From Candidatus Bathyarchaeia archaeon (GTDB lineage: Archaea; Thermoproteota; Bathyarchaeia; Bathyarchaeales; Bathycorpusculaceae): a stretch of DNA of 64,000 bases. Within the stretch, counting starts at the first letter, position 1. Each line of letters begins with the position of its first letter. Below the pieces are notes generated by a model. The model searched no databases. It was not told where the DNA came from and saw only the letters and a list, made by a program, of their open reading frames with translations. The translations under genes were made by a program, and so were the position numbers. Location: contig JBEKTQ010000006.1 of NCBI GenBank assembly GCA_049515895.1, forward strand, positions 32,001 through 96,000, read 5' to 3'. Positions 24,997-49,981 of this stretch are shown here, piece after piece.

Positions 24997-25581
24997 CTAA
25001 AGTTTGAGGTACTGGTCTGTTAAGCCTTCCCGTTCAAGCATGCCAAGCCAATCCACTACGCCAACAAAGCAGCTCTTTCGTTTCTCCAAAACATCCAAAA
25101 TATCGTTGACTACTTCTCCAACCGGTTTGCCCGTAATATCTAATTCGCATACCCTTCCCGCATGTGCCACGATAGCCTCGCCTAGACAAACATCGATAAT
25201 TTCGGCTTGAAGGTTCTCCCAAAGTTTGCTTCCCGTGTAACCGCATTTCTCCATGAAAAGCTTAAGTTCCTTCGGGTTTCGTCGCAAAACGAAAACCAGA
25301 GCCACATGCTTGGTTGGGGTCACTGCGCTGGCGTAATGTCCGTCGATGATTATGTTGGCGTTGTCAGTTGCATCTATTGTTTTTGCGAGTTTCTCTTGCA
25401 TTTTCTCTTCATCGATTATGAAGGTATTTCTCTCTTTGTCTTCGCCCAGTGTGAGGTTGTTGGCTTTGGCGTAGTCGGTGAGGTTAATGTAAGCGGCGTT
25501 GAGTTTGGCGGCTAGGGCTTTGGCGGTTGTTGTTTTACCTGTGCATGGTGTTCCCGTTATGAGGATGACTCGTTTGTCCAT
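24997..25581 (-). CDS. Atypical adenylate kinase (AK6/Fap7 family)
   Basis: GTPCTGKTT P-loop, IDGH and KLWENLQAE. Confidence 0.88.
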   Translation of the reverse strand: MDKRVILITGTPCTGKTTTAKALAAKLNAAYINLTDYAKANNLTLGEDKERNTFIIDEEKMQEKLAKTIDATDNANIIIDGHYASAVTPTKHVALVFVLRRNPKELKLFMEKCGYTGSKLWENLQAEIIDVCLGEAIVAHAGRVCELDITGKPVGEVVNDILDVLEKRKSCFVGVVDWLGMLEREGLTDQYLKL

Positions 25582-25661
25582 GTTTAGAGTTGTGTCTGAG
25601 GAAAGTTTTATCCGTTCCTCTTACAAACGCTTCCTTGTATGCCACAGGGCGGGCGGTTTAG

Positions 25662-26543
25662 ATAAGCGGGTTAACGTTTTATTTAGTTGACGTGTTCACA
25701 CAGGAAAAGTACGCAGGCAACCAGCTTGCAGTCTTCACTGACACAGGCGATTTGCCGGCTGAGGATATGCAGAAGATCGCGAATGAAATGCATTTTTCCG
25801 AAACAACCTTCATACGCTCAAACGAAAAGAGGGACGGTGGATATGACGTGCGCATCTTTACACCTAACTCGGAGGTGCCTTTCGCTGGACATCCAACTCT
25901 GGGAACGGCATGGGTGATCAATCATTTCATAGCTGGTGGCAAAGATGGCAAGGTTGTGCTTAACTTGAAAGTTGGGCAGATCATCGTCATCTTCAAAAAA
26001 GAGGATGATCAAGAGACGTTGTGGATGAAGCAGGCTTCACCTGTTTTCGGCGAATCTTTCACGGCGGGTCGTCTAGCTAAAGTCCTGCAGCTTAATGAAT
26101 CGGATTTTGACGAACGGATTCCGGTTCAGGAAGTTTCTACGGGTTTGCCATTCATCATTGTCGCCCTCAAAACTTTGGACGCTGCTAAAAGGGCAGCCAT
26201 AAGCATCGGTTCTCTCCGTGAAATGGCGAGTGAAGTTCGCGGCGGAATCTTGATTTTCTCCCCTCAAACCGTTGATAAACGCAATGATTTGCATGTCCGT
26301 GTTTTCGTAGATTTGTTAGGCATCCCGGAGGATCCAGCGACGGGCTCAGGGAACGGCTGCCTTGCAGGTTACTTGTCCCGCTACCACTACTTCGGCACTG
26401 AGGTGGTTAACGTCAGGGTTGAGCAGGGCATTGAGTTGGGGCGTCCCTCGCTGCTTCTGCTTAAAGCCCGCAAAGTAGGCGATGATTTGCAAGTGGAGGT
26501 TGGCGGCCAAGTCTTCCTGGTCGCGAAGGGCCAGCTTGCTTGA
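25662..26543 (+). CDS. PhzF family isomerase
   Basis: FYLVDVFT...GNQLAV, SETTF, EVPFAGHPTLG and EDPATGSG. The conserved N-terminus requires a start upstream of GTG 25692 (ATA at 25662). Confidence 0.9.
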   Translation: MSGLTFYLVDVFTQEKYAGNQLAVFTDTGDLPAEDMQKIANEMHFSETTFIRSNEKRDGGYDVRIFTPNSEVPFAGHPTLGTAWVINHFIAGGKDGKVVLNLKVGQIIVIFKKEDDQETLWMKQASPVFGESFTAGRLAKVLQLNESDFDERIPVQEVSTGLPFIIVALKTLDAAKRAAISIGSLREMASEVRGGILIFSPQTVDKRNDLHVRVFVDLLGIPEDPATGSGNGCLAGYLSRYHYFGTEVVNVRVEQGIELGRPSLLLLKARKVGDDLQVEVGGQVFLVAKGQLA

Positions 26544-26586
26544 ATTTGACTCGAAATTCTTATTGCTTGCCAACGCGCATTGTTGA

Positions 26587-26905
26587 GTGGGCTGGCGAGT
26601 TGGTGTGTGGCTTTCGGACCCAAAAATGCTGGGTCTGAGGAAACTCCGCCCACGTGTAGAATTGCAGCTCCATGATGGGGCAACGCGAGAGCGTTGGCAA
26701 CGGAGCAGAAACGAAACGTCCAATTGGACTTGTCGATGACGCCTTTGTGAGGTCGAGTGCGCCAACTTGGAAGCGGTGAAACGGCCGTCCTGCAAGTGGA
26801 AAGGGCAAACAGTCGCCGATGCGGAATCTACCCAAGGCGCGGGTAGCCCGATTAGCCGAATGCCACAATAACAGAAGGCGGGTTACAACCAGCACACCAG
26901 CCCAC
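26587..26905 (+). ncRNA. rnpB: RNase P RNA
   Basis: CR-I GAGGAAACTCCGCCC and CR-V AACAGAAGGCGGGTTA pair to form P4; P1 GTGGGCTGG/CCAGCCCAC; P3 GGACCCA/TGGGTCT; GCAGAAACG CR-II-like element. Confidence 0.92.
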
Positions 26906-26924
26906 ACAATAACAGAAGGTAATC

Positions 26925-27327
26925 TACAACAACAAATAGAATCTCCAGCGTTAAGGTATCGGCACGATGAATTAAAGACAAAAGGGGAAGCAACAAAAGA
27001 TAGGTATGAGAAATATTTTCAAGAGTTTTTGCAATTCATAAACAAAAATCCTGATGAACTAATCGTTCAAAGACAATAAGACCTACTAAACAAAGACCTT
27101 AAAATACAGAGAAAACAGAAAGCCAATTTTTAGCGTTCATGGCTAAGAAAAAACAAGAAGGCTATGCAATAGCAACCCTTCAAATAATATTTGCTTCTAT
27201 TCGCTCATTTTTTGAAATACACTATTTCCCTCTAAGAATGCGAATAGGAGATTACCCGAAAGGAGACGGCAATGGCGTAAAACGGGCATCCAAAAGAAGC
27301 CATACAAGCAGGAAGAATTACAGTTAA
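26925..27327 (+). pseudogene. Tyrosine integrase N-terminal fragment (stop codon, frameshift, truncated)
   Basis: ATKDRYEKYFQEFLQFINKNPDELI.QRQ*DL...ESQFLAFMAKKKQEGYAIATLQIIFASIRSFF resembles the core-binding domain of archaeal integrases; no catalytic domain is visible. Confidence 0.7.
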
Positions 27328-27420
27328 GATTGTTACGTTACTTTTTCCAACTCTGAACCAAAAGAAGCCGCTAATAACATTTTGTTGAATTCTCTTTAGA
27401 CTAAGATTAATCTATATAGC

Positions 27421-27546
27421 CTATCTTGACTTTTGTCTTTCCACTCTGTCAAGTTTCTTCTTCTTGCGGGCATCTTCTCGCTCTTTCTTTTTCCGAGGCT
27501 GAGGTTTTCCCCGATCTCGTTCTCCTGTGTCTCCCTTCTTACTCAT
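27421..27546 (-). CDS. Small Lys/Arg-rich protein (41 aa), not in ORF track
   Basis: MSKKGDTGERDRGKPQPRKKKEREDARKKKKLDRVERQKSR with AAGGAG SD. Confidence 0.6.
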   Translation of the reverse strand: MSKKGDTGERDRGKPQPRKKKEREDARKKKKLDRVERQKSR

Positions 27547-27704
27547 CTGATAATCTCCTTATGATGAAAAAACGGCTGTAAGCTTCGCAAAGCCGTTCCT
27601 TGCCTTAATAATTAAGTAAATACAGTTTTTTATGAGTTGTGGGGCCAAAAGAATCCACAAAGAGCTCTGAAAAACCAAAAAAGAACGTGCAAAACAAAAG
27701 AAAG

Positions 27705-28664
27705 CTAAAAATAAGTTCTTTGATCTGGCAATTCGAGATTTAGTTGCATTTTCAGCAGCTTGTATCTATTTCTAACAGTAACTTCGGTGACTCCAGCAGC
27801 GTCCGCCATCTCTTTTTGTGTTATCTTTTCATTATTCTGAAGACAAGCTATGTAGAGTGCCGCTGCAGCCAGGCCCGTGGGATCTTTTCCTGCCGAAAAT
27901 CGTTTTCGTCTAGCCTCGGCAAGTATTGTTATCGCTGCGCCCTGTGTTTTGCCTGAAATCCCGTTTTTCTCGGCAATTTTTGAGACGTATGTCAGCGGAT
28001 CAGCAATTGGCATGTGAAAATCGAGCACTTGCAGTAGCAGTCTATAGCAGCGTGCGACATCTTTCTCGTCAACAAGGCTTGCTTCAGCGATTTCGTGAAG
28101 GCTTCTGGATGCTCCGCTCTTGCGACAAGCTGCATAAATTGAAGCCGCGATGATAGAGTTAATTGATCTTCCTCTGATTAGGCCTTTTTCTAACGCTTTG
28201 CGGTAAATAATAGCCGATTTTTCTTTGGTCGATCGTGAGATGGAAACTTTGCTTGATAAACGTTCAAGTTCAGACATGGCTTGTGCAAGGTTTCGGTCGC
28301 TGGATGAGTGTACTCGGCTGCGTATTTGCCATTTCCTGAGACGCCACATCTGCAATCTAGTGGAAAGGGGCAATTTCCTTCCGAATGCATCTCTGTCAAT
28401 TTGGCTGATTGAGGTGGATAATCCTTTATCATGGACATAATAGGAGGTTGGCATACCGACGCGGCTTCTTGATGTTTTTTCTTCTTGTGTAAAAGCGCGC
28501 CATTCGGGGCCTTTATCTAACATCTGCTCGTACAAAACAAGACCGCAGTCACCGCAGATGGTTTCGCCTGTGCCGCAGTCGTGGACAAGTTTTTTGCTTG
28601 TGCATTCAGGGCACTTTTCAGCTAAGTGAATATGCACTTTGGGGACTTCTAGGGTTAGACTCAT
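27705..28664 (-). CDS. tfb: Transcription initiation factor IIB
   Basis: Zn ribbon CPEC...CGDCG, GPEWRAF, two cyclin repeats and GVTEVTVRNRY. Confidence 0.95.
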   Translation of the reverse strand: MSLTLEVPKVHIHLAEKCPECTSKKLVHDCGTGETICGDCGLVLYEQMLDKGPEWRAFTQEEKTSRSRVGMPTSYYVHDKGLSTSISQIDRDAFGRKLPLSTRLQMWRLRKWQIRSRVHSSSDRNLAQAMSELERLSSKVSISRSTKEKSAIIYRKALEKGLIRGRSINSIIAASIYAACRKSGASRSLHEIAEASLVDEKDVARCYRLLLQVLDFHMPIADPLTYVSKIAEKNGISGKTQGAAITILAEARRKRFSAGKDPTGLAAAALYIACLQNNEKITQKEMADAAGVTEVTVRNRYKLLKMQLNLELPDQRTYF

Positions 28665-29184
28665 GTTTTAATCTCTGTTTATTTGCCCAGAATCGTCACT
28701 AAATCACTTAATGCTATTAAAGGTTAGAAAAGTGATAATGCGATCCTCGCATTCTAACTACGTGTACGTGCATCTATTATAAAGGACTTTGCTATCAAAT
28801 AACTAGATTTGGCATCCCACTACTAGCATTCCCGCTTATAGTGCGCGCGTTTAATAAATTGGCAATCAATTTTGGTAAGGTTGTTTTCCTTTCTTCACCT
28901 TAACACAATGTGTTATCATATTCAGGGGCTACTGGATTGGCAATGATAGTTACTCCTAATGACACTTCCTGAGCAGAAAAAACTTTGAGAACATCCAATT
29001 CTTCATAAAGATAAGACTCAAATCTGCATACCGTAGAATAGAATCTAGCGCGAGCTCCGCTTTGTGCCCAACAGCAACACGCAAAAGCCAAAGGAACCGC
29101 AAAAACCAAACAAAAAAGAAACTGAGACTATATAACGAAGTGTTATTAGTCTTGTACGCACACCTGTAGCTTGAGTGGAGACGT

Positions 29185-29415
29185 ATTAAAAGAGTAGAGG
29201 CAGTTGCTCTTCTAAAAGAGCTAAGCTCGGGGATGTTAATTCAACCCGCTTTTGTGCTTCTTGAACGAAGATTCCCAGATATTTCTCAGTTATACCCAGA
29301 TAATTACCAGTTGAAAATTAAAGGCATTTACGACCTTCAAGAAATTGTGGTATTTCTTAATAACAGGTTCTTAATAGAAGAGAACGAAAACTTCCTAACT
29401 ATTTCAACACTTTAA
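29185..29415 (+). CDS. Small hypothetical protein, possible paralogue of 42164..42409
   Basis: In-frame extension IKRVEAVALLKEL upstream of ATG 29233, following a GGAG. Confidence 0.5.
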   Translation: MKRVEAVALLKELSSGMLIQPAFVLLERRFPDISQLYPDNYQLKIKGIYDLQEIVVFLNNRFLIEENENFLTISTL

Positions 29416-29728
29416 AACAGCTATTACAATTTTTGCAAGTGTAAACTTCGATGCGAAAGACACAGGTCGCTAATGATTTATCAGGTTTTGCAACATCTTG
29501 GTTGCAGTGTGGACATTTTGCCATACAAAGCCATTTCTTTTGGTTTACAAACACCATTCATCAAGTTTTAAATTTATGTGGTTACGTGAAGATACAACAA
29601 ACTATCAGCACCAGAAAAAACTAGTGTTGTATAGGCACAAAAGAAAGATAGAAGCAAGCGCAATAACAATTGAGGGTCAGAATAAATGGAAAACTCTACA
29701 AAACGCTTGCCTGCCTGTTAAATCCGTC

Positions 29729-30250
29729 TTAAAGCCGCATCATGTGGCTTAAAATATGAATTGTCAGGATGAGATAGAATGCTGTGGTCATGCTAACGTG
29801 TACGAATCTGATGTACTTTTTTAAACTTTGCATTATGTTGAACCTGTAAAAAAGACCTGTCACTACGAGCGTAAGCGTGGCAACAAATAATGCAAATCCC
29901 GTTCCAATGAAGGACACCCTCGTTATCCAATATGTGAAGTGAACAGAAATAAGCGTGAAGGCAACCAAATTTCCTAATATGTGCACTCTTACCCACGCTT
30001 TGATTCTCGTGGGACGACGATGTTTCAAGACAACGTATATAGGCGTAACAACTGCGATCCAGAAGCCTCCTATCAAGACAGCCCAATGGGTAAACAGCAA
30101 GGAACCTACAGAAAAACTGAACAAAGACCTGTAAACAATTATAAGGGCTGATAGACATATCGTGAAAAGAACTATGACCAATGTTCCCCATTGGTCTGGA
30201 TTCTTTAAACGTTCCATATCCTTAACCAGTTTTACCTTTGATGCCCACAT
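29729..30250 (-). CDS. Multi-TM membrane protein with paired His residues (cytochrome b / ferric reductase-like)
   Basis: WVRVHILG...VHF and FVHVS...IHILSH pairs in hydrophobic helices. Confidence 0.55.
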   Translation of the reverse strand: MWASKVKLVKDMERLKNPDQWGTLVIVLFTICLSALIIVYRSLFSFSVGSLLFTHWAVLIGGFWIAVVTPIYVVLKHRRPTRIKAWVRVHILGNLVAFTLISVHFTYWITRVSFIGTGFALFVATLTLVVTGLFYRFNIMQSLKKYIRFVHVSMTTAFYLILTIHILSHMMRL

Positions 30251-30300
30251 GCACCGTATTATGACACCGTTATATCCTACTTATGAAGTTATGTCCAAAA

Positions 30301-30342
30301 TCTGAATTAATGAAGAAAAATTCTGAATTAATGAAGAAAAAT
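30301..30342. repeat. Perfect 21-bp tandem duplication
   Basis: TCTGAATTAATGAAGAAAAAT x2. Confidence 0.85.
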
Positions 30343-30745
30343 CTACTTGAGCAATATTCTAACAAATCAGCGCACGCTAATGGTTAGTTGTTCCAACACT
30401 GACGGTGATATAACAGATTTGTTCGGGGCATCCAAGAATTTTTTAGCTATATACGTCGGGCGCGCTAAACCCAACAAACTAAAGCAGATTCAACAATCCA
30501 ATTTTGAATGACCTTGTTCCAGTTTGGGCTGCTCCAACCGCTGCGGTTTTTCAGTTGATGTGTTGTACAACTCCATTTAAGCCAAATATGTCGATTTTTA
30601 AGAGATATTTTACGTATTGACCTGTTTTTGTGTTCGACAATTAGGTCTCTCAGCCCGTTTTGATATGCTTGCATTATGTACGAGGGTTTATTTGATGGTT
30701 TAGGCACTATTAAGATATATGAAAGCAACAGGAGAAAAGTAGAAC

Positions 30746-31153
30746 ATGATCAACAACTACCAAAAAGAAGTCCAAACAAAACTCACCAAAGGGCTCTTAG
30801 ACATGATTATTCTTCAATATCTCGACCAAGAATCCATGCATGGATACCAACTCATCACCAAAATCCGAAAAAGCTACGGCGTCTACTTCGGACCAAGCAC
30901 CATCTACCCATTACTAGGGCTATTAGAGAAAAAAGGCTACTTAAAGAGCGCCTGGAAAATGGATGCAGAAAGGCCACGAAAAGTGTTCAATCTCACTAAC
31001 GATGGGAAAAATTTCTTGAATTTTACCGAAAACTCACTCAACCTCCTCTGTAAAAATATGGTAGCCGATAGCAAAATCCAAATACAATCAGCCTCGCTAA
31101 TTTCGTCGAGATCAACGCTTCAAAGAGGAATCCCGCCTTTGACAGTCTGCTGA
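30746..31153 (+). CDS. PadR family transcriptional regulator
   Basis: KGLLDMIIL...MHGYQLI...GPSTIYPLL..LEKKG...RPRKVF.LT..G. Confidence 0.9.
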   Translation: MINNYQKEVQTKLTKGLLDMIILQYLDQESMHGYQLITKIRKSYGVYFGPSTIYPLLGLLEKKGYLKSAWKMDAERPRKVFNLTNDGKNFLNFTENSLNLLCKNMVADSKIQIQSASLISSRSTLQRGIPPLTVC

Positions 31154-31815
31154 GAAAATCCCTTTTAGCCAGGTTTAGCGGCCAATCACGATCCTTCCGA
31201 GAATTTGAGTTTTGCCATCCTTCAGACCTGCCAAATGAATATGATAAGGCATTTTGAAAGAGGAGCTTGTCTTATATATTTTGAAACTGTAAAAAAACTG
31301 CCGGGGTTAGATGATCCATGTCAACGACAAAGATTTTGTTAGGCTGTTCGTATTCCTCGTTTTTGCTAAATTTCCGTGTCAAGCACATAAGATCAGTTAG
31401 CCGTTTGAATTGTTGCTTCTATAGGAAGCGCTGCGAGAGCTGTTTCTAATTACTGTTGCTTCTGTTCATCTAACAAGTAATATTTTTTGCGAATTTCACC
31501 GACTAAATAACGGCGCACCCTATAAATGTGCAAATAGAGAAGCCTAAAGAGACAAAAAGACTTTCATACGCAACCATTATAACCAAAACAAGAACTTCTG
31601 CCAAAATATATGCCACAGTTAGCACGCCTCATAAAAAAAGGACAAAACCATCCGCGCGCGCAAAACCAACATCATTAACACTACCGCCTAAGCGTGCGTG
31701 CGCTAAGAAAAACAAAGAGCTTTATTCGTTGATGGTAGCTCCGCTCCCGCTTGCGCCGACCGCCAAACTATTTGAGGAACAACCTGCTCATTGATTATCA
31801 AGAGGGAAGAAAGAA

Positions 31816-32037
31816 ATGTCCAAGGGGTATGGAACAATTGTTGGTAGAGTAGGCATCATTTTACTGCTTACTGGAATAGTTATCATGCTAGTTGGTTACT
31901 TAAGATCTCCAGCGCACACCAACCGCATACCAAGTAACTTGGTAACCTATCTTGGAGTAGGTTTAGCGGTTGTTGGAGCTATTTTGTTCCTCATATTTGT
32001 TATTGAATTTGTAACAAACGAGAGAAAACACTTGTAA
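31816..32037 (+). CDS. Small two-TM membrane protein
   Basis: Two hydrophobic helices; GAGGG upstream. Confidence 0.65.
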   Translation: MSKGYGTIVGRVGIILLLTGIVIMLVGYLRSPAHTNRIPSNLVTYLGVGLAVVGAILFLIFVIEFVTNERKHL

Positions 32038-32529
32038 ATGTCCTCAAGAGATTTAGACTTCAGCGCTTCGCTCCCGATTTCGCTCTCTTTATCAACTATT
32101 TTTGTTGGTCGCTCTTGTCGCTTCGCTCCGAACCGCTCCACGGCCAACAAAAACAATTAGAAAAACGAGAGGGCACCAAGAAAAAAACCTTAAACAAAAC
32201 TTATTCCAAACTTACAGCAACCAAAACAGCATCTAAACAATCATTAGCGGGTAAATCAACCCTGATTAAGACGCCCCAGCAAAGCTCGAATCCTCAAGCC
32301 AACGTTCCGTTAGAATAACCGTCTAAAAAGAAGCTCAAACGGGGCCATGGCATTTGCCCTCGTTCCACCGCCTCAGAAACTTCAAACGCTCGCTTCATAC
32401 CCCTCTTGCTCCGCTCAATCGTGAAAAACTGTCGCAATTCAGGGAAGCTCGTGCCTCGTTTCCTCACTCGTGCGAAATGATTAAGGAAATAAGTAGTAAA
32501 AAGTTACTGAGGCCAAAATATAATCAGTA

Positions 32530-32970
32530 TTATGAACCGAGTTTCCGCTCATCCAAAACTGCGCCATCGCCTCTCAAAACAGCCGTAAAACTCTGATTTG
32601 ATTTCATGCTGTCATCAAACCCAATTAATAGGTTGATTTGATCTTGCAGTGTTTCTCCTGCATGAAGCGTAAAGCTTTCAGGGCGATAGTCATATGCGCC
32701 AGTTTCGCTGATGTTTCCGTTGACCATTCTTTCAATCGTTAGATTTCCATTCTTGATTTCAGCCGTCCCCGTGTTTTCTACAGTTACATTGAACGTGATA
32801 ATCATCTCCATCCCAACGATCGGGGAGGGCCCTTCAGCAATGAAGGCTGTTATCTTTGCTTGGAGGCTCGGTTGAGGAGAAAAATAACCAGAATAGAAAA
32901 GCAGCGTAGTTACCGACGCAAAAACGATAACGACCGTAACTATTACTAGAATAAGTTTTCTTTTGATCAT
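32530..32970 (-). CDS. Membrane-anchored Ig-like (CARDB-like) protein
   Basis: N-terminal TM; FNVTVENTG...L.AGET motif. Confidence 0.65.
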   Translation of the reverse strand: MIKRKLILVIVTVVIVFASVTTLLFYSGYFSPQPSLQAKITAFIAEGPSPIVGMEMIITFNVTVENTGTAEIKNGNLTIERMVNGNISETGAYDYRPESFTLHAGETLQDQINLLIGFDDSMKSNQSFTAVLRGDGAVLDERKLGS

Positions 32971-33200
32971 TAATTCAAGTATCCCCTTTTTAGCCAGATA
33001 GCTATTTTTTCGTTCTCGATAATTTAGTTTTTTTCCGTTTAAAATCCTTTTTTGTCAAGGTTTATTAACCAACCAATTATTTCTTAGTCCAGATTTCTTG
33101 ACTAAGGCGAACTTCTAGAGGCTTATAACTAGAAAGTGATCATAACAATATTGGGATATAAAATGAGTTAGGAACCTAAAAAATTACTAAGGCTAAGGGT

Positions 33201-33223
33201 GGGTTACGTCCAGCACACCAGCC
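33201..33223 (+). repeat. att-like copy of the rnpB 3' end
   Basis: GGGTTACgtCCAGCACACCAGCC versus rnpB GGGTTACaaCCAGCACACCAGCC. Confidence 0.7.
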
Positions 33224-33327
33224 TATTTCGCTAACACACCGCACTTTTATGGTCCCTGCTAACAAGGTGCTCCATTAAGAAAGACTCACAAAAAAAATGG
33301 AAAGTTGTTTTTGCTTTGCTTCTTTGG

Positions 33328-35949
33328 CTATGGACGTTTTCGTGTGACAAGAATTGCTAGTACAGCGCCGATTATGACGATTACGATAATGATTGCTATT
33401 CCTACGTACATGATGTCGTTTTGAGTGGTTGCTTGGCTAAGTGGTGATGCGGTTGGTGCAACTGTTGGTGCTGCGGCGCTAGCGTAGAAAGCTGCTTGAC
33501 TTGAAGAGCCATAGTATGATTGTGTGCCTGCAAAAGTGGCGGTGACAGTGTAGTTGCCTGTGATGTCAGGTTTCCAATTGAAGCTGTAGAAGCCGCTGGC
33601 AGTGGTTGTGGTTGCGCCGATTGTTCTGTAGTTGCCGTTGCTGTCCAAGACTGATAATGTAACTGGGACTCCAGTTATGTTGGTTGGCATTGGCTGCTGC
33701 ATGTAAACGGATTCCATGAACTGCGTCATGCTTGCGTCGGAAACGCATGGTAGACCGTTGGGGAAGTTTGCTGCACCTACGTCCTGGTTTGCGCCTGCGG
33801 AGATGTCAGTCACTCTGCCAGAGATGGTTATTGGAGCTGCGGTCGTGACGCCAACGTCGGGTGCTGTGACGGTGGTTTTGCTTGGCCCAATGCCGAAGCC
33901 GTATATCTGTCCGTCGTAGCCGTTCCATCCGATCAGTTCTCCGTCAGCGATAGGTGATACGTCTCTCTGGAAAGCGCCATTTATTTCCCAAACTTCGTTG
34001 CCGTTGGCGCAGTTCAATGCAATTTTCTCTCCACCTGGAAAGAGCGGCGGATCGTAGCAGCGTCCTTCGGAGAGGAATAGCATTCCATCGGCGATGCTTT
34101 GCGTATCAAAGACCCAATTGGGATATATACCGTAAGGCGTGTTGTATCCAGCACTTCCTCTGGTCCACGTCCAATCAATTTTTCCAGTTGTAAGGTTGAG
34201 AGCGTTTACGTAGCCACCGATGTCCCAGATGTAGACTTGACCGTAGGCGATAGCTCCACCTGCGAAGAGGGTGCTCAGTCCATTTCCTACTAGTTGAGTT
34301 GGACCCCAGAGTTTACTGCCAGTTGACAGCGAATAGCCGTATGCTTGATCTGTGTCTTTGTCCAGTCTCACGTATATGCCGTTGCCTGATGCCTCAAGGT
34401 TGTAATTATGCGCGTTTTGCAATGTCTGGTTTGTTGGTCCGAAAAGAAGCGCGCCAGTCATGGGATTGTACGCTATATCTGTAACATAAGATCCACCATA
34501 CTGTGAGAACGATGCGAACACGCCGGCGCTAATAAGGGTCGTGGCTGAGGTCAAAAGTATTCCTTGGGTGGTTTCTGAAGAGATGCCAAAGCTTGGATTC
34601 GCCATCGGAACTGGCACTGACCACTGGATGCCTGTTGTGAAGTTGTAGGTTCCTGTTGGTTTAAAGTCACCTGTGTAGATTTCAGCCGAAAGGCCATTTG
34701 CTCCTGGACCACCAACAAGGCAAAGTGATGAATTCCACATAGTCAGCGATTCCGCGACAACGGGGCTGAAGGGGTTGCCAGGTACGGCATTAGTGGTATT
34801 GGTGTAGTAGAGTAGTATTGATCCTGCGCAGTTAGGTTCGTTGGAATCTATCAGTGCGTTTGTTGATGTTGAAAAGAGGTTAGCTATGCTTCCTGGTACG
34901 CTGTTTACAGTTGCCATGTAGTTTCCTGTGAACGGATCTAATATGTCATAGTTTGCAGTTGAAGGATTGTACACCCACAGGAGTGCTTGAGAGCCGAATT
35001 CCTCAACTGTGTGGAATGTGATCACTTGACCATACACCAGTGTGTCAGTGGTATTCTTTACCCATAACGTTTGTCCGTTGAAGAGGTCAACTGCAACGAT
35101 GCCTGCGTAGTCGGTTTGAGCGGGATACCAGCTGTAGAAAAGAATTCCATCCAGAATTATCGGTTCAAAGGTGTGGTAGAGTGGCGAGTTTGCGGCGAAT
35201 GAGCTCATTTCGTTAGCTGGGGTTTCGCCTCCAGGTTGGCCTCCAGTTGTGATTAGTTTCGTCCACAGTACGTGCGCCGTCGTTGGTGCTGTGCTGTAGG
35301 GTTGGAAGTTGTTTCCTGAGCCGTCGTATCCACCTGTATTGTCGAATCCTGGTCTACCCAGTCCGTACCAGTTTCCACCGACCGCTTGCGCCCACCAATA
35401 GTTTGATGCGTAAATTGGTGTTGTCCAGTAGCTCGTTGGAAGAGGAGTACTAGAAAAGTATGATACCGGAGTTGCTTGCACAACAATTGAGACTGCTGGG
35501 CTTATTGAGGGATTCACATTATAGGTTATTCCGCTCGTAAGGTCCTTTCCTAATGATTGCCCAGGAAACACCGCTTGGAATGTGTAGTTTCCCACCGCTG
35601 TGGGCACGAAGTTAATTGCTGGGACGCCTCCCGTGGTGTCTGTTGTGTATGGTCCGAGGGTCTGGTTGGTTCCGTCTGGTTTAATGATGTTGACTTTCAG
35701 GTTTGTGAGTGCTGATCCGGCGTTGATGAAGTTGTTGTAGTTAAGTAATGTTACGGGTTTGGTGAAGAAGAGGGTTATGTACACGGTTTGGCCGACGCCG
35801 ACGGGGCTGGGTGCTGCGTTGACGTACAGAAATGTTGGAAGGTTTACAGGCGACGATGTTTGGGCAGATGCTTGTCCTATCATCATTATCATTGGAGCTG
35901 TTAATACTATCATAAGAACCAAAGCAATCAAACGTCTTTTGGTTTGCAT
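33328..35949 (-). CDS. Secreted, C-terminally anchored PQQ-like beta-propeller surface protein
   Basis: Signal peptide; repeated A.dl.tG...W motifs; Ig-like domain; C-terminal TM plus RKRP. Confidence 0.8.
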   Translation of the reverse strand: MQTKRRLIALVLMIVLTAPMIMMIGQASAQTSSPVNLPTFLYVNAAPSPVGVGQTVYITLFFTKPVTLLNYNNFINAGSALTNLKVNIIKPDGTNQTLGPYTTDTTGGVPAINFVPTAVGNYTFQAVFPGQSLGKDLTSGITYNVNPSISPAVSIVVQATPVSYFSSTPLPTSYWTTPIYASNYWWAQAVGGNWYGLGRPGFDNTGGYDGSGNNFQPYSTAPTTAHVLWTKLITTGGQPGGETPANEMSSFAANSPLYHTFEPIILDGILFYSWYPAQTDYAGIVAVDLFNGQTLWVKNTTDTLVYGQVITFHTVEEFGSQALLWVYNPSTANYDILDPFTGNYMATVNSVPGSIANLFSTSTNALIDSNEPNCAGSILLYYTNTTNAVPGNPFSPVVAESLTMWNSSLCLVGGPGANGLSAEIYTGDFKPTGTYNFTTGIQWSVPVPMANPSFGISSETTQGILLTSATTLISAGVFASFSQYGGSYVTDIAYNPMTGALLFGPTNQTLQNAHNYNLEASGNGIYVRLDKDTDQAYGYSLSTGSKLWGPTQLVGNGLSTLFAGGAIAYGQVYIWDIGGYVNALNLTTGKIDWTWTRGSAGYNTPYGIYPNWVFDTQSIADGMLFLSEGRCYDPPLFPGGEKIALNCANGNEVWEINGAFQRDVSPIADGELIGWNGYDGQIYGFGIGPSKTTVTAPDVGVTTAAPITISGRVTDISAGANQDVGAANFPNGLPCVSDASMTQFMESVYMQQPMPTNITGVPVTLSVLDSNGNYRTIGATTTTASGFYSFNWKPDITGNYTVTATFAGTQSYYGSSSQAAFYASAAAPTVAPTASPLSQATTQNDIMYVGIAIIIVIVIIGAVLAILVTRKRP

Positions 35950-35976
35950 TTTTGTTTTTCTCCTTTAATATTATTT

Positions 35977-36013
35977 GTGCTGAGAAGAAGCAGAGAAGAC
36001 GCCTCTTCTCCAC
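35977..36013 (-). promoter_or_regulatory. 5'-leader hairpin (copy 1) downstream of TATA at 36036-36041
   Basis: GTG GAGAAG AGGC [gtcttctct] GCTT CTTCTC ag CAC. Confidence 0.55.
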
Positions 36014-36211
36014 GTAGCCCCTCTCTGTCCAACTCATATAAGTAATTTGCGCAAAACTCTTAGAGGATAAAGCAAATAAATGCATTTTTTCATTTAAAAG
36101 GATGAAAAATTAAACGAAAAGCAGTGGTTGTACTTCAAGAAAATACGTTTGCCAACCTAATTCTAACGACCGAAGGAAGAAAGGGGGTGTGGCAATTTCG
36201 CCAATCTTGAT

Positions 36212-36236
36212 GTGTTACGTCCAACACAACCAGCCC
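36212..36236 (+). repeat. Second, more degenerate att-like copy of the rnpB 3' end
   Basis: GTGTTACGTCCAACACAACCAGCCC. Confidence 0.5.
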
Positions 36237-36560
36237 CCAAAATGACCTGGGAACCAGTGTAAATAACATAAGCCCCTGAAACCCAAAAATAGCGAAACCA
36301 ACTAAGGAACTTAGCCAATCGGTTAGAATCAGTTATCCAATCTCACACACATTCTCAACCGTCACCTCAGTAACGTCATCATCAAAACAAACTCCGCAAA
36401 GACGTGAATCAATTGACCGATTATTCTTAGTCGAACAGCAACCACAACGAACACGCGTGCCCAATGTTGTTTATAATTCATTTTATAGATTCATAATTAT
36501 TATTAGACAAGTTTTTCTACAATAGATAAGGTCAACCTTCCCATTGAGAGTTCTACCATT

Positions 36561-37373
36561 ATGGCCGAAGCTACGACTGAACAGACGATTATGGATTACG
36601 CGGTGATAGCAAGAGGACACGTTCTCTCAGCTTGTACGGACAAAATAGTCCCGAGGAAGACCGTGGTTTTCACAACTCTTGTAGACCCAACCGTCATAAA
36701 AGTAGCCGGGGAAAGACTAAAACGACGGCTATTTACCAAGTTTGGGATTCGGAAGCCCAGCCTTGCAACCATCCAATTAGCTTCTCTGCAAAAATACTAC
36801 GAACCATACATAGTGATTAGCGCCAGATATTTTCTAGATTACTACCGCATGTGCGCTTACACTGTTTCAATCGATAGCGAAGTACGCGAGTTCGTCATGC
36901 AAAACAGAACATTCTATCCGGAGAAAAGTCAGAATTCAACCGCAAGCATAAAGTTTGAGGGCGAAGAACGGCTTGTTGTTGAGAAGAAATCCTTCTTCAT
37001 GCTATTAAAGAATGGTCAAGAAGCGAATCCTGAAACGTTACCTAGCGGGCCCCCGGAGAAGAAGCCCAAGGAGTCAATAAGGGCACAATGCATTAAGGAA
37101 ATCGATCCGGAAGCGGACGTTGACTTTGCTCGGAAAAGGCTAGTTCATCGACCGGAAAACCTGAGCCGTATAGTCGATGAGGTTTTTGAAATCAGCGAAA
37201 GAGTCGTAATTTACGCCCCCAGATTCAAGCTTACGTACGTTAATGCGAGCAATTACGAGGAAAAATCAATTGAGTTTGACGGAATTACATCAAAAAGAAT
37301 CCTCGACGAGAACCTTCCTTCTCGTGCAGTCCGAGCCATTAAGTCCACCTTGAGCGCGACTTTCAAGAAGTAG
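36561..37373 (+). CDS. Hypothetical protein
   Basis: 270-aa ORF with protein-like composition; no family recognised. Confidence 0.7.
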   Translation: MAEATTEQTIMDYAVIARGHVLSACTDKIVPRKTVVFTTLVDPTVIKVAGERLKRRLFTKFGIRKPSLATIQLASLQKYYEPYIVISARYFLDYYRMCAYTVSIDSEVREFVMQNRTFYPEKSQNSTASIKFEGEERLVVEKKSFFMLLKNGQEANPETLPSGPPEKKPKESIRAQCIKEIDPEADVDFARKRLVHRPENLSRIVDEVFEISERVVIYAPRFKLTYVNASNYEEKSIEFDGITSKRILDENLPSRAVRAIKSTLSATFKK

Positions 37374-37401
37374 AAAAGTGCGCCGGCGCGCGCGTTACTC
37401 T

Positions 37402-37632
37402 TTAATTGCGGACATTGAACCCACGTAATCTCAACACGAACCATACAACGCACACTAATAGGAATAGGCTGTCGCCGAGGTTCGGCCACAACGGGAAGTA
37501 AACCCAGTTGTTAAAGAAGGTCGGAAGTTTTAAAGCATAACCGGCGATTCCGAAGAGGCACATGATATCGACACACCTTATGAACAATTGTTTTCCTGTT
37601 CTAGGAATCCATGAGTAGGATGCCCCTTGCAT
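37402..37632 (-). CDS. Small membrane protein
   Basis: Two hydrophobic stretches; GAGG upstream. Confidence 0.45.
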   Translation of the reverse strand: MQGASYSWIPRTGKQLFIRCVDIMCLFGIAGYALKLPTFFNNWVYFPLWPNLGDSLFLLVCVVWFVLRLRGFNVRN

Positions 37633-37970
37633 TTGCCTTCGTCCTCTTAATGGATTGAGTTGCTCAACTTAATTTATTTTTACCAACCTCAAATCTTAAT
37701 ATTACAAGTATCCTTTCTTTCAATCTTGCGTGAGCGCGCGTGCTTGTTCCCAAATTATGAAGTAAGCAGCATTTTTTTCTAACTCCATAGGATGTGCCAC
37801 CGGCAGCTTCGACCCTGCATTTGATGATGAAAAGAATCAACAACCTTCAAGTGGCGTAATAAGTTGTCTGGCCTGGCCAACAAAATTTCGAAAACGGTTG
37901 GGTTAGCGGCATGCTTAATTCTTCTCTTTGTTGACTATTTCAGCTATATAGCATAGGACCTCGGATTTTG

Positions 37971-38116
37971 GGGAGATTTAAGGAGATTTCGGGAGAATTG
38001 GGGAGATTTGGGGAGATTTTTAGACGCAACCTGCAGCCGATCCAAGACCTAAATCAAAAAAGCAACCCAAATCACAAACAACAAATTTGCCGGTTTCCCA
38101 CGGCGCCAAAATAACT
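37971..38116. repeat. Dispersed repeat copy 1 with 5x10-bp GGGAGATTTN array
   Basis: Homologous to 55361-55513. Confidence 0.8.
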
Positions 38117-38300
38117 CACAAAACCATTCCAACCTAAACGAACAACTTTTAGCGGCAATGTTGCAGTATTCTTTCATATTAGTGCAGAAAAATGTGACCA
38201 AACGCGCGGCGTGCTAATCTTGTGCGAAATGTTATGACATTTTCTTAATGCTGTCTTGATTTAAAAAATAAAAAAAGAAAAAGGGGTTTTGACTATTTGT

Positions 38301-41021
38301 TTACACTCGTTTTCTTGTGACTAAGATTGCGAGTACTGCGCCGATTATGATTATGACGATTATTACCGCTATGAGTCCGTACATGACTGTGTTGTTTGAA
38401 GCTAAGCCGCTGGCTGGTGATGCTGTTGGTGCTTGTGTTGCTGGGGGTGCACCTGCGTGGACGGCTGCTTCAGCTGATGAACCGTAGTATCCGTTTGTGC
38501 CAGCGAATACTGCATAGATCGTGTAGTCGCCGGTAATGTCTGGTTTCCACGTGAAGCTGTAGAATCCGCTTCCATCTGAGGTTGTTGTTCCGATTTGTCG
38601 ATAGTTGTGGTTGCTGTCCAGGACATATAATGTCACTGGGACTCCTGTAAGGTTGGTCGGTAGTGGCTGCTGCTCGTATGCGAATTCCATTAAGCCTTTC
38701 ATACTGTCATCGGATACGCATGGTAGTCCGTTGGGGAAGTTCGCCTTAACTGCTTCTTGTGATGCACCTGCGCAGACATCGGTTACTGTGCCGCTTATGA
38801 CGACTGGTGTGTCTGTTGTTACTCCGACAGAAGGTGCGCTAACGGTTGTTTTGCTTGGTCCCTGTGCGTACGCGTAGACTTGTCCGTCGTAGGCGTTGAA
38901 TGTGGTTAATACGCCGTCTGTCACTTCGGTTCCTGTGTCGTCGAAGCCCAAGTTGCTCCACACGAGTTTTCCACTTGTTGCGTTCAGTGCCAACTCTAGT
39001 GCTCCGTGGAATAGCGGTGGGTTGTATTCGTGTCCTTCAGATAGGTACAGGATTGTATTAGTTCCTGTTCCAGCCATGGCGTGGTCTGCGAAGACCCAGA
39101 TTGGGTAGACCCCGTATGGTGACTCTGTTCCGGCTGGTCCGTTAATCTGGTATGTGCTCCACGTCCAGAGAATGTTGCCGTTGGCCATGTTTACTGCCCA
39201 TACGTCTCCTCCTAAGCCCCAAACGTACATTGTGTTCAGTAATGAGTCAGGAAGAGTGACGAGGCCGTAGGCGTCGTAGGTGTTCAGTGAATTGCCGTCT
39301 GCCATTTTTACGTTGAGGTTGCTTGTCCATACTTGCTGGCCTGTGGTGTCTGAGTATGCTGCCATCTGGAAGGTGTTCTGGTTTGTTTCAACGTAGATTC
39401 CGTTTGCTGCTGCACTATAAGCTAATCTAGTGTAGGGTGTGTATATGCCGCCGGTGCGGTTGGTTATCCACATTAGGTTGCCGTCTGTTGCGCTGTAGCC
39501 GGCTTCAACCATGTACCCAGTGGTTTCTGAAACTGAGACGGAGCCTTGTTCGAATACTAGGGTGTTTCCTGCCCATAATGTCGAGCCTAGAGCTGTGCCG
39601 AGTCCTGCCACGAGTTGTCCGTTGAGAACCGGGTTCATTGAAACAGCCCAGACCAATGCGTAGTTTGCATCGAATACAGTGTTAGGTGCAATGTTCCAGT
39701 CGAATAAGCCGCCGAAAGCTGACATTTGGCCGCTTGCTATGAAAGCGTTGGTTAGGTTGTAGAATTCCAGTACTGGTCCTTTGGATGCGGGGAAGACGAC
39801 TTTTGTCGTGGGGATTGGGCCAAACATCGGTGGACCACCCGGGGACATGTGTGGAATTGTGACGGTCAGATCAGTGGCTGGAGTTGGGGGTCCGAAGAAG
39901 TTGATGGTGGCGTTTTGAGCGGCTTGCCAGCCGATTATGTTTCCATTAGCGTCTTGCCCGAGGAATCCCAATGAAGGCATGTTGATGATTGAAGCGACCA
40001 AATTTCCCGTCATAGCATCCCACATATACCATGTGGCTGGTCCAGAGGAGAAGAATCCGCCGCCGGTTTGAGTGAAGATGTATGGTCCGACAATGCCGTA
40101 TTGGTCAATTGTTGGGAAGTTAAGCTCCATGCCACATCTTAAGATTGTCGTGGTGTTGATTACCCATTCAGTCTGTCCGTTATACAGGTTTACCGCTATG
40201 ATGCCTTGCGAGGCGGCGGTTTGTGTTGTGTACCAGGTTGAATAGAGTACTCCGTTCATGATAACTGGCGCGTATTTTGGATCGTATTGTGAGGTTGTCC
40301 AGAAGCTGCTGTACTGCTCGGTGTTGCCCAGTGGTGCTCCAGCTGCTCCTCCGACGCACCATGGTTTGGTCCAGAGGATGTGCGCAGAAGCTGGCGCAGC
40401 GGAGAACGGGTTGTAGTTGCCAGTGGCGTTGTAGCCTCCTGTGTTCGCAAATGTGACGGAGGAATATCCCATCCAGCCTCCGTTTAATGCTGCCCAGTTA
40501 AAGATGTTTTCAGAGTTTACTGGAGTTTCCCAGTAGGCTGTTGGGAGTGGAGTGTTTGGTAAGCCTCCCCTTGGCTCTGATGTCACAACAAGCGTCTGTG
40601 GTGCACTTTGACTTGGGTCATTGTAATAATTCGTGTAGCCGAATCCCGTGAAGGGTTGTCCGCCGTAGAACATTTGGAATGTGTAGTTGCCGACTGATGT
40701 TGGAGTGTAGGTTGTGAATGTGCCGCCGGTTGTGTCAGTGGTGAATGTTCCTAGTGAGGATTTTACTCCGGCTGGATTGGTAACGTAGACGGTCATGTTT
40801 TTGGCGACTTCTGTATCAAAAATTGGCACAGCAAGCCAAAAATCAACGGTAACTATTTGACCAACACCGCATGGGTTAGGAGCGACGTTGCAAAAGGATA
40901 TTGTTGGGACATGGACGATGCTTTGCCCGAACGCTGATTTCGATACTGTTAAAGCGCCTGCTAAAGATACCATAAGCATGCATAGTATTATCGCAGCAAT
41001 TTTGTTTTTCAATAAATGCAT
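38301..41021 (-). CDS. Secreted, C-terminally anchored PQQ-like beta-propeller surface protein (paralogue of 33328..35949)
   Basis: Shares LSEG..Y.PPLF, GPSKTTV.AP.VGVTT, NFPNGLPCVSD and WKPDITG; ATG 41021 with GGAG SD. Confidence 0.8.
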   Translation of the reverse strand: MHLLKNKIAAIILCMLMVSLAGALTVSKSAFGQSIVHVPTISFCNVAPNPCGVGQIVTVDFWLAVPIFDTEVAKNMTVYVTNPAGVKSSLGTFTTDTTGGTFTTYTPTSVGNYTFQMFYGGQPFTGFGYTNYYNDPSQSAPQTLVVTSEPRGGLPNTPLPTAYWETPVNSENIFNWAALNGGWMGYSSVTFANTGGYNATGNYNPFSAAPASAHILWTKPWCVGGAAGAPLGNTEQYSSFWTTSQYDPKYAPVIMNGVLYSTWYTTQTAASQGIIAVNLYNGQTEWVINTTTILRCGMELNFPTIDQYGIVGPYIFTQTGGGFFSSGPATWYMWDAMTGNLVASIINMPSLGFLGQDANGNIIGWQAAQNATINFFGPPTPATDLTVTIPHMSPGGPPMFGPIPTTKVVFPASKGPVLEFYNLTNAFIASGQMSAFGGLFDWNIAPNTVFDANYALVWAVSMNPVLNGQLVAGLGTALGSTLWAGNTLVFEQGSVSVSETTGYMVEAGYSATDGNLMWITNRTGGIYTPYTRLAYSAAANGIYVETNQNTFQMAAYSDTTGQQVWTSNLNVKMADGNSLNTYDAYGLVTLPDSLLNTMYVWGLGGDVWAVNMANGNILWTWSTYQINGPAGTESPYGVYPIWVFADHAMAGTGTNTILYLSEGHEYNPPLFHGALELALNATSGKLVWSNLGFDDTGTEVTDGVLTTFNAYDGQVYAYAQGPSKTTVSAPSVGVTTDTPVVISGTVTDVCAGASQEAVKANFPNGLPCVSDDSMKGLMEFAYEQQPLPTNLTGVPVTLYVLDSNHNYRQIGTTTSDGSGFYSFTWKPDITGDYTIYAVFAGTNGYYGSSAEAAVHAGAPPATQAPTASPASGLASNNTVMYGLIAVIIVIIIIGAVLAILVTRKRV

Positions 41022-41051
41022 TTTTTCTTTTCTCCATTTAATTTTGTCTTT

Positions 41052-41085
41052 GTTGAGCAACAAGCAGAAAAGCCAATTGCCCAAC
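41052..41085 (-). promoter_or_regulatory. 5'-leader hairpin (copy 2) downstream of TATA at 41109-41117
   Basis: GTTGGGCAAT TGGC [ttttct] GCTT GTTGCTCAAC. Confidence 0.55.
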
Positions 41086-41325
41086 GAATCCTCTTTCGAC
41101 TCACTTTGTATTTAAAACTTGCGATGACCCTGTATAGCGCCATTTTTGAGATTCCACGCTATTTCACTTCTTTCTTAAAGAAAAACGCAAAAATCGAGTT
41201 TCAATCTCTTGCCTGCTTGAATGAACAAACAGAAGCCTCCTTTTGTCAATTTGGAGAGGAATCGTTATGAGGTACGATTGCTCTTTTTGTTATTTGCGTG
41301 CACGTTGTTAGGAGATGGACTTTTT

Positions 41326-41484
41326 TTGCCGACTAAGACTTTGGTTTGCGGTTGTGTTTATGAGGAAAATGAGTGGATGCTTGTCCGAATAAAAGAATGT
41401 GAAAAGCATCACAAACTGCGAACTAGAAAAGTTGAGTACAGGCCAAAAGCGGAATGCAACCGAAACGATACGAGAGGCGAGTAA
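41326..41484 (+). CDS. Small putative Zn-binding protein (CGC...CxxH)
   Basis: TTG start after GGAGA; MPTKTLVCGCVYEE...ECEKHH. Confidence 0.45.
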   Translation: MPTKTLVCGCVYEENEWMLVRIKECEKHHKLRTRKVEYRPKAECNRNDTRGE

Positions 41485-41585
41485 GCCTTCGAGCTTTCGT
41501 CAACGGATAGACTTTATAATAAGTTCAGTATTAGGCAAGCGTGCAAAGAGATTTGCAAAGAACGTAATAGGAAGTGAAAAAACAA

Positions 41586-41729
41586 ATGTCATACGGTAAC
41601 AAAGAGATGCACAAGGCAACCTGCGCTGACTGCGGAAAAGAATGCGAAGTTCCCTTCAAGCCAGACGGTAGCAGGCCAGTATATTGTCGTGAGTGCTATT
41701 CAAAACGAAGACCACCAAGACGATATTAA
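41586..41729 (+). CDS. CxxC-x17-CxxC zinc-ribbon protein (47 aa), not in ORF track
   Basis: MHKATCADCGKECEVPFKPDGSRPVYCRECY is the family signature. Confidence 0.92.
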   Translation: MSYGNKEMHKATCADCGKECEVPFKPDGSRPVYCRECYSKRRPPRRY

Positions 41730-41916
41730 GCTTGTACGCTAAAATCTTTACCTATTTGGTAATATTCTTTTTTCTTTAATTTAACCCTGAATTAAATTCT
41801 AAACAATGGTAAACCTGATCTCCAAAAACGGGCTCGCAAGATTCCAGTGCGAAGCATATTGATGCGAAAAATGTTTTAACTTGGATGCTGTTCTTAACTT
41901 CTTATTGGGTGACTTT

Positions 41917-42045
41917 ATGCCTAGTGTAGCAAAACGAAAAGCAAAAAACACACAGATTGAACAAAGAAAAAAATTGGAACGCGAAAAAGAAGCAAAAAAG
42001 AAACAGATGAGGCAGCAGCTTCCGACTAAAGGCCAGAAACGTTAG
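41917..42045 (+). CDS. Small Lys/Arg-rich protein (42 aa)
   Basis: GGGTGA SD; MPSVAKRKAKNTQIEQRKKLEREKEAKKKQMRQQLPTKGQKR. Confidence 0.65.
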   Translation: MPSVAKRKAKNTQIEQRKKLEREKEAKKKQMRQQLPTKGQKR

Positions 42046-42163
42046 GCCTAAAAATAAGTAATTCACGATTGACCTCGTCGCGGCTGATTTAATTAATGCT
42101 TTTTTCGTGGCATTCTACTGAAAGTTTTTTATTAATTGCCCGTGTAATAAGTAGCGATCATTC

Positions 42164-42409: not shown

Positions 42410-42552
42410 AAGCTAAACCGCGTTGATTGCCGCCCACATTTCAATTAAGGAAAAGGCCGGGATACACTGCATTTTTCTCGATCTTGAAAGACTGCAGGGC
42501 ACAGCAAAGTTTTTGAGGGCCTATTCCAATGAGCTTGCAAGGTTGACAAATC

Positions 42553-45117: not shown

Positions 45118-45143
45118 TGAACTACAAAGACGTTATAGTGTCT

Positions 45144-49980: not shown

Positions 49981-49981
49981 G

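Follow-up and report, generated by a model that had tools for sequence, protein, structure and literature searches.

A probable remnant of an integrative element with a partitioned integrase in the RNase P RNA gene of a Bathyarchaeia archaeon

We analysed a stretch of 64,000 nucleotides (nt) of DNA, hereafter the window, from a Candidatus Bathyarchaeia archaeon of peat (assembly GCA_049515895.1, contig JBEKTQ010000006.1, positions 32,001 to 96,000), in which rnpB, the gene for RNase P RNA, is followed by a decayed tyrosine recombinase (integrase) gene and by further copies of the rnpB 3′ end. The only archaeal RNase P RNA gene of the window was located by cmscan (match to RF00373 at 26595–26897), and rnpB is single-copy in the 3.18-Mb, 53-contig assembly. 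The features on which the argument rests are listed below; int(N) denotes the promoter, start codon and first codons, and int(C) the remaining body, of an integrase gene that is proposed to be split.

26595–26902, + strand: rnpB, RNase P RNA gene, intact (RF00373, 188.6 bits, model positions 1–288)
26875–26902, + strand: core of the left attachment site (attL), AAGGC GGGTTAC AA CCAGCACACCAGCC, the 28 nt that make up the 3′ strand of helix P1; identity block common with copy 2
26903–27392, + strand: relic of int(C), N-terminal part of a tyrosine recombinase, recognized by tblastn with the integrase of the congener G008; catalytic domain absent
33120–33195, + strand: int(N) arm, ending in AAATTACTAAGGCTAAGGG; aligns with 13 other arms, from 10 other genomes and 2 further sites of this genome
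33196–33223, + strand: copy 2, core of the right attachment site (attR), read as the displaced original rnpB 3′ end with the GT allele (alignment with the rnpB end)
33224–33245, + strand: native-type flank (TATTTCGCTAACACACC...), from alignment A1
36212–36235, + strand: copy 3, a degenerate core (GTGTTACGTCCAACACAACCAGCC) of 24 nt without an arm upstream, from the sequence scan

The terminal 23 nt of rnpB (26880–26902) recur at 33201–33223 on the same strand with 21 of 23 positions identical, the two mismatches being an AA>GT change, and no match at up to three mismatches arose in 100 dinucleotide shuffles. Two substitutions and one inserted base separate copy 3 from copy 2, with which it has the GT in common. 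We scanned the whole genome on both strands for such repeats, allowing up to four differences including at most one indel, with the reversed genome as a control. Only five sites were found, three in the window (the rnpB end and copies 2 and 3) and one on each of two other contigs (C40:401–423 and C15:85547–85569), and the control gave none. With so few sites the 23-mer does not qualify as a common dispersed repeat, and that explanation was rejected. A first-pass annotation of this DNA, made from the sequence alone, had reported both the repeat at 33201–33223 and the degenerate third copy with its GT, and had named a dispersed repeat as the finding that would overturn its reading; both copies proved specific at the genome level. 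The rnpB ends of 20 congeners bear the same core.

Directly behind rnpB, where the same annotation had placed an integrase relic, the G008 integrase (P0001; 422 amino acids (aa)) matches the window at 26942–27130 (48% identity, residues 43–105) and, in a different frame, at 27112–27300 (62% identity, residues 100–162). The relic is interrupted by a stop at 27077–27079 and by a frameshift near 27115–27130 and retains only residues ~43–162, that is, the N-terminal domain, which makes it a pseudogene of the family. Its open reading frames (ORFs) have no Pfam match, their homology appearing solely against integrases of relatives; relics of a similar kind behind rnpB in G010, G019, G021 and G028 are among the matches. 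When searched by tblastn against its own genome, the relic gave weak N-terminal matches only, and no intact copy of its integrase clade was found there; an integrase N-terminal relic is present at C21:42688–43035. The G008 protein itself is intact. It carries the tyrosine recombinase catalytic domain (PF00589, 57.7 bits) and aligns with Pyrococcus abyssi XerA (4a8e, E 9e-7), the catalytic Arg, His-x-x-Arg, His and Tyr being matched (GLRRS, PHSLRK, LGH and the aligned Tyr). A second type of integrase, unrelated to that of G008, occurs in G003 (P0002; 306 aa, PF00589, 62.5 bits).

Alignment of the distal core copies of this genome and its relatives revealed that copy 2 is the terminal part of a conserved arm of about 85 nt. 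Fourteen arms from 11 genomes align over this length and have a common layout, in which a TATA-like box (gcTTATAActaga; conserved as TTATAA-CTAGA) is followed after about 35 nt by a start codon (ATG; GTG or TTG in two cases), by about 10 codons (MSEE.S.KKLLSPK) and then by the core, which in the arm frame reads AGY(N/I)QHT. The box may act as the integrase promoter. In nine of the 14 arms the frame is open from the start codon through the core. At the G008 locus the integrase body exits the rnpB end in the arm frame (..KQKAGYIQHT..; ..KQKAGYIQHTKPTTT..), and GTG-SKKLLSPKAGYIQHT, in the frame of the integrase ORF, stands before the distal copy. The G003 integrase also reads across the core in this frame and has a different arm of its own (MTETTIEIITTEPTKERTIKAGYNQHT) at its own distal copy. 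On one contig of a further relative (G024:C144), arm, core and int(C) residues 13–67 are contiguous on one DNA, an internal junction of a tandem array that is equivalent to attP, the attachment site of a free element. Because arm and integrase body lie in a common frame across the core, the attachment site would be situated inside the integrase gene, which integration would split. This is the SSV-type, or suicidal, architecture, with attP in the ORF and with int(N) and int(C) at opposite ends of the integrated element. Both halves are present in the window in decayed form, at 26903–27392 and 33120–33195; the arm still has a TATA-like cTTATAA (33122–33128) and an ATG (33163–33165), followed by TAG at codon 3 (33169–33171). 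The first-pass annotation had missed the partition, the copy that it saw at 33201 being the end of an 85-nt arm with the putative promoter and first codons of an integrase.

The DNA beyond copy 2 indicates the direction of the insertion. The flank TATTTCGCTAACACACC directly follows rnpB in G012, G014, G015 and G030, and in G077 it stands behind the distal copy; in G014 it continues into a homologue of an 873-aa surface protein of the window. Since the same flank directly follows rnpB in four relatives, we take copy 2 and its flank to be the original rnpB end and the 6.3 kb in front of them to be the insert. The present rnpB end has the AA allele and the displaced end the GT allele, so that the exchange probably occurred 5′ of this dinucleotide, within AAGGCGGGTTAC. 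The G+C content is 0.39–0.43 between copies 1 and 2 as compared with 0.48–0.53 on either side. The locus displays a regenerated RNA gene, a displaced fragment of its 3′ end in direct orientation and an integrase gene in between, as tDNA-type islands do, with rnpB as the RNA gene and the integrase as a relic. SSV-type integrases target tRNA genes; the two tRNA genes of the window lie at ~59.2 and ~59.6 kb, none is near rnpB, and the target here is rnpB. We consider it highly probable that 26903–33195 is what remains, in decayed form, of a 6.3-kb integrative element with a partitioned integrase that inserted into the rnpB 3′ end. The copy in this genome is dead, its integrase being truncated and frameshifted and codon 3 of its arm a stop.

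Under the mechanism that we propose, the 5′ end of the integrase gene of the free element (about codons 10–20, ..KAGY(N/I)QHT..) would contain an attachment site of ~28 nt with the very sequence of the 3′ strand of helix P1. Integration would rebuild a complete rnpB, the last ~22–28 nt of which would come from the element (AA allele), and would leave int(C) fused in frame to the rnpB end without its own promoter and start codon. The promoter, start codon and first ~10 codons, int(N), would be moved to the far end, beside the displaced GT-allele rnpB end and the native flank.

We searched 61 genomes, comprising this one, 36 same-genus relatives and 24 members of the order's other families, and obtained an rnpB match in 52. 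The DNA behind rnpB was compared over at most 18 kb in 20 loci, from this genome and 19 same-genus genomes; 12 same-genus genomes in which rnpB is near a contig end or fragmentary were left out, as was locus G023a, which ends at rnpB. In half of these loci (10 of 20) one to four further copies of the genome's own rnpB 3′ end lie downstream, and an integrase or its relic lies within 1 kb behind rnpB in nine (G000, G003, G008, G010, G014, G015, G019, G021 and G028). Tandem arrays of two to four copies occur in G003, G008, G031, G084, G080 and G024. The arm–core motif was found 24 times, in 18 of the 61 genomes, with no occurrence of a control pattern; G080 has three copies, G084 has two and a 109-nt rnpB fragment, and G077 and G081 have one each, 0.7 and 2.2 kb behind rnpB. 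A compact element of 2.9 kb with a near-full integrase is present in G073.

Searching public genome contigs with the G008 integrase yielded nine loci, all from metagenome-assembled genomes (MAGs) of Bathyarchaeia/Bathyarchaeota or Thermoproteota. At eight of them rnpB abuts the integrase match (cmscan), and the ninth contig begins inside rnpB, of which it holds the 3′ part only. Metagenome contigs contributed 23 integrase loci. In 11 of them rnpB lies directly upstream, either whole or truncated by the end of the contig; at one other (L085) only an rnpB-like piece of 55 nt precedes the intact gene, and three are uninformative. The first-pass annotation had suggested collecting rnpB loci from relatives and inspecting the neighbours of intact integrases, and its proposal of an element family that targets rnpB is supported by the duplicated 3′ ends, by the integrases and relics behind rnpB in relatives, by the position of integrase homologues at rnpB wherever the contig permits inspection and by the native flank behind copy 2. 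Insertion at rnpB is well supported at the family level, and the copy in the window is a fossil of that family.

Two further observations concern the arrangement of rnpB itself. At the end of a Bathyarchaeota MAG contig (L069), two full-length rnpB matches, at 176–473 (+ strand) and 2861–3161 (− strand; 163 and 181 bits), form an inverted pair 2.4 kb apart with an integrase of the same clade between them. In many MAGs of the genus rnpB lies about 1 kb or less from a contig end (for example G009, G017, G018, G022, G026, G032, G034, G038, G054 and G057), which may reflect assembly breaks at the variable, repeat-bearing DNA behind the gene.

Further genes behind rnpB, both inside the 6.3-kb insert and beyond copy 2, are as follows.

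27705–28664, − strand: cargo, paralogue of transcription factor B (TFB) (PF00382, PF08271; NF001658, 413 bits)
29729–30250, − strand: cargo, 173-aa membrane protein without a family; weak relative in the G001 locus
30746–31153, + strand: cargo, PadR-family regulator (PF03551, 61 bits)
33328–35949, − strand: 873-aa PQQ-like/immunoglobulin (Ig)-like surface protein (PF13360), between copies 2 and 3
45144–45515, − strand: TFS gene, first conserved downstream anchor and end of the variable region behind rnpB (comparison of congeneric loci)

The accessory content recognized earlier between copies 1 and 2 (TFB, PadR and small membrane genes) is borne out by the matches to PF00382, NF001658 and PF03551 and by the lower G+C content. 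The TFB gene is complete and has an 82% identical paralogue at C8:5815–6723, and a third TFB (43% identical) is encoded on contig C10; a general transcription factor is here carried as mobile-element cargo. Three paralogues of the PadR regulator, about 65% identical to it, are present in the genome, and further small membrane ORFs lie between copies 1 and 2. Beyond copy 2, the 873-aa protein has a homologue behind rnpB in G014 (39% identical). The genes at 33328–35949 and 38301–41084, both on the − strand and within the variable region behind rnpB, encode paralogues of about 900 aa with a PQQ-like beta-propeller, Ig-like domains and a C-terminal membrane anchor, and homologues of these PQQ-like surface proteins are found behind rnpB in G008, G010, G014, G029 and G031. 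The distance from rnpB to TFS varies across the congeners from 5.2 kb (G007) to 18.2 kb, the longest, in this genome.

Copy 3 may mark an older second insertion, with 33224–36211 as the older element, a reading that we favour only slightly over a stray fragment or local duplication with the 873-aa gene as host DNA. Copy 3 is among only three sites of the genome within four differences of the 23-mer of copy 2, with which it shares strand and GT allele and from which it lies 3.0 kb downstream; the tandem arrays in six relatives and the variable rnpB–TFS interval point the same way. Against a second insertion, no arm is present upstream of copy 3, and neither an integrase relic nor any further att copy was found in 33224–50000. 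The DNA between copies 2 and 3 has a host-like G+C content (0.48–0.52) and holds one large surface-protein gene, which belongs to a multi-copy family with a paralogue nearby at 38301–41084 and whose homologue in G014 sits behind rnpB with no distal repeat found there. Of the earlier claim of at least two successive insertions, then, what stands is that copy 3 is statistically real and that relatives have tandem arrays; arm and integrase are missing at copy 3, in DNA that resembles the host.

Several observations weigh against a partitioned-integrase element at rnpB. The arm is broken in five of the 14 cases, including all three of this genome, and the contiguous arm–core–int(C) case, in G024, bears a frameshift. 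No free element with an uninterrupted arm–core–int gene was recovered, the protein and arm–core pattern scans of IMG/VR giving no match each. The first-pass annotation had also proposed to look for an empty site or a circular junction; in the contigs of four peat/wetland runs, neither was found over 25500–37500, nor was any joint that removes 26903–33200, and only the integrated form was seen. This is weak evidence, because rare variants are lost from contigs and this element is dead. Empty-site-like arrangements were found in other species only, and a contig of one relative in X4 diverges exactly at 26903. Structures of SSV1 integrase are present in the PDB; PDB chains retrieved by phmmer at E ≤0.01 were XerA-like proteins and phage Gp33 only, with no SSV1 integrase chain.

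Eight of the 23 metagenome relatives, moreover, form a sister clade (at most 51% identity) that is without the core and is not located at rnpB. These integrases (L086–L089, L091, L092, L095 and L096; 45–51% identity) have a different N-terminus (..PLYKGAFG..NNNR..), which together with the missing rnpB core implies that the sister clade has a different target; at L092 the opposite strand carries a tRNA gene ~80 nt upstream. Remnants of arm and core also occur away from rnpB, at C40 and C15 in this genome and singly in G028, G030 and G035. The two in this genome, C40:391–515 (L001) and C15:85547–85660 (L002), each consist of a decayed int(N) arm and core; one adjoins a fragment of a radical-SAM/SPASM gene where a contig begins, and the other precedes a proteasome beta-subunit gene by 160 nt. 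The G035 remnant adjoins a 106-nt rnpB 3′ fragment. Such off-site remnants fall outside the simple model and could result from rearrangement, from secondary sites or from a mixture of strains in the MAG.

The broken arms and the missing uninterrupted free-form gene would also be expected of a classical, non-partitioned element, whose integrase would start downstream of the core and whose 85-nt arm would be a protein-binding or regulatory region with an incidental ATG and frame. In G008 an ATG internal to rnpB (GAATGCC) opens the integrated ORF, and an arm-borne start is not strictly needed there; in other loci, however, this ATG is out of frame or closed (G000, by TAA; L077). Against the classical layout, nine of 14 arms combine a start codon with a frame open into the core, which is the exact frame of the int(C) exit, and a TATA-like box stands at a fixed distance before the arm start. 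The unrelated integrase type of G003 has an arm of its own in the same frame, and tblastn similarity extends into the rnpB-encoded residues 1–13 in at least 12 relatives. We regard a classical element as improbable. That there is no mobile element at all, the repeats being dispersed or an assembly artefact and the low-G+C stretch ordinary variable DNA, is barely credible: the source MAG is in 53 contigs, has 4.87% contamination and bears two further core copies on other contigs, yet the core has five sites genome-wide against none in the control, contigs of three other peat/wetland runs show both junctions with no difference, and the comparative evidence from relatives contradicts it.

Returning to the partitioned element, the DNA next to the core contains a short repeat of its own. 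The rnpB 15-mer CACAATAACAGAAGG at 26865–26879 has an exact second copy directly behind the core.

26905–26919, + strand: second copy of the 15-mer CACAATAACAGAAGG, member of the AACARAAG repeat, candidate integrase-binding site (exact 15-mer match)

The motif AACARAAG adjoins the core on its 5′ side in rnpB. In 13 of 29 loci it is found again no more than 60 nt beyond the core, the background being 0.02 per 60 nt, and there are often two or three units spaced at ~21 nt. We suggest that the AACARAAG repeats are candidate integrase-binding sites. A reading of 26905–26919 as a truncated extra attachment site was dropped in favour of this family-wide repeat.

The two strands of helix P1 were compared in 15 of the 20 congeners. 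The 5′ strand is identical in 14 of the 15, and the 3′ strand exhibits many alleles at the dinucleotide after GGGTTAC (AA, AG, TG, GT, GG and others) and beyond. Such variety is consistent with element-borne copies having replaced the 3′ end repeatedly. Two other sites of the genome resemble internal parts of rnpB. A 20-nt exact match to 26841–26860, extending to ~33/36, is located at C9:85395–85414 (L003 7396–7415, − strand), within the 3′ end of a 393-aa ORF without a known family, and may be a piece left behind from a displaced rnpB fragment. The ORFs neighbouring the C40, C15 and C9 sites gave no informative families. At the very start of contig C21 (16–39; L004), a 24-nt match to 26862–26885 with two mismatches diverges after GTTA, within the core, which may mark a crossover point or a secondary site.

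Genomic islands in tRNA and transfer-messenger RNA (tmRNA) genes were reportedly described by Williams in 2002, and such islands are the subject of Islander (PMC4383910). The elements described here resemble them in that the 3′ part of a stable RNA gene is hit, the gene is regenerated by element DNA, the displaced 3′ fragment lies at the far end and tandem arrays occur; they differ in using rnpB. As the TIGER/Islander resource sorts integration sites as tRNA/tmRNA, coding or intergenic only (PMC12424338), an rnpB island would be filed as intergenic or missed. SSV-type integrases (SSV1 and the pT26-2 family) have the recombination site inside their own ORF, and integration splits the gene (PMC8371274, PMC7253208). 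The rnpB elements share with them a tyrosine recombinase with N- and C-terminal pieces at the two element ends, an att site translated as part of the protein, the piling up of decayed pieces at the target and tandem arrays that join the arm of one element to the body of another. SSV-type elements, by contrast, target tRNA genes and reside in hyperthermophiles, whereas the present hosts are Bathyarchaeia from peat and wetland; the split in the rnpB elements lies near the 5′ end and separates only the promoter and ~10 codons. The integrase is SSV-type by architecture, and its nearest solved relatives by sequence are XerA-like.

A non-tRNA stable RNA gene that serves as the chromosomal attachment site (attB) of a tyrosine integrase is described for phage phiEf11 of Enterococcus faecalis, whose site, reported as novel in 2025, is ffs (4.5S/SRP RNA) (PMC12540744); that system differs in being bacterial, in its classical integrase with attP outside the gene and in the RNA targeted. 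The integrated elements of Thaumarchaeota are likewise small, cryptic, sometimes tandem elements of mesophilic archaea with tyrosine integrases, and the survey names as their targets tRNA genes, intergenic regions and the 3′ ends of protein genes, its main text containing neither 'RNase P' nor 'rnpB' (PMC6563490). Neither term occurs in a 2021 review of archaeal tyrosine recombinases, in which the only non-tRNA targets listed are intergenic sites and protein genes (PMC8371274). The first-pass annotation knew of no described archaeal example, and our literature search agrees: in open-access papers and preprints, exclusive of supplementary tables and including two papers on Bathyarchaeia, no case of integration into rnpB came to light. 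What sets these elements apart is the rnpB target, the extremely 5′-proximal split and the Bathyarchaeia hosts from peat and wetland, and the mechanism combines an SSV-type integrase with the classic design of RNA-gene islands.

Integration into stable RNA genes has in practice meant tRNA and tmRNA genes, and the present data, with an integrase clade at rnpB in all genome loci and most of the metagenome loci inspected, indicate that the single-copy, essential rnpB can play the same role, as a second kind of stable RNA gene, besides tRNA, that is used as an archaeal landing site. They extend partitioned integrases to Bathyarchaeia from peat and wetland samples, and rnpB-targeting elements explain the variation of 5–18 kb behind rnpB within one genus. 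In practical terms, rnpB 3′ ends may be used as seeds for island finding in archaeal MAGs, and compact intact elements such as the 2.9-kb one of G073 provide an integrase whose chromosomal site is defined and conserved, in a lineage, the Bathyarchaeia, for which we know of no genetic tools. More tentatively, and we hold this to be doubtful, two or more families of partitioned integrases in Bathyarchaeia could have rnpB as their dedicated landing site, the tie between element and gene being functional as well as positional. Integrated int(C) would then stand in frame on the strongly transcribed rnpB, opened in G008 by the rnpB-internal ATG, and read-through could supply integrase for excision. 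If this is true, element-borne alleles of the 3′ strand would shape the evolution of the RNase P ribozyme, and the rnpB–TFS interval would be the main hot spot of gene flux in these genomes.

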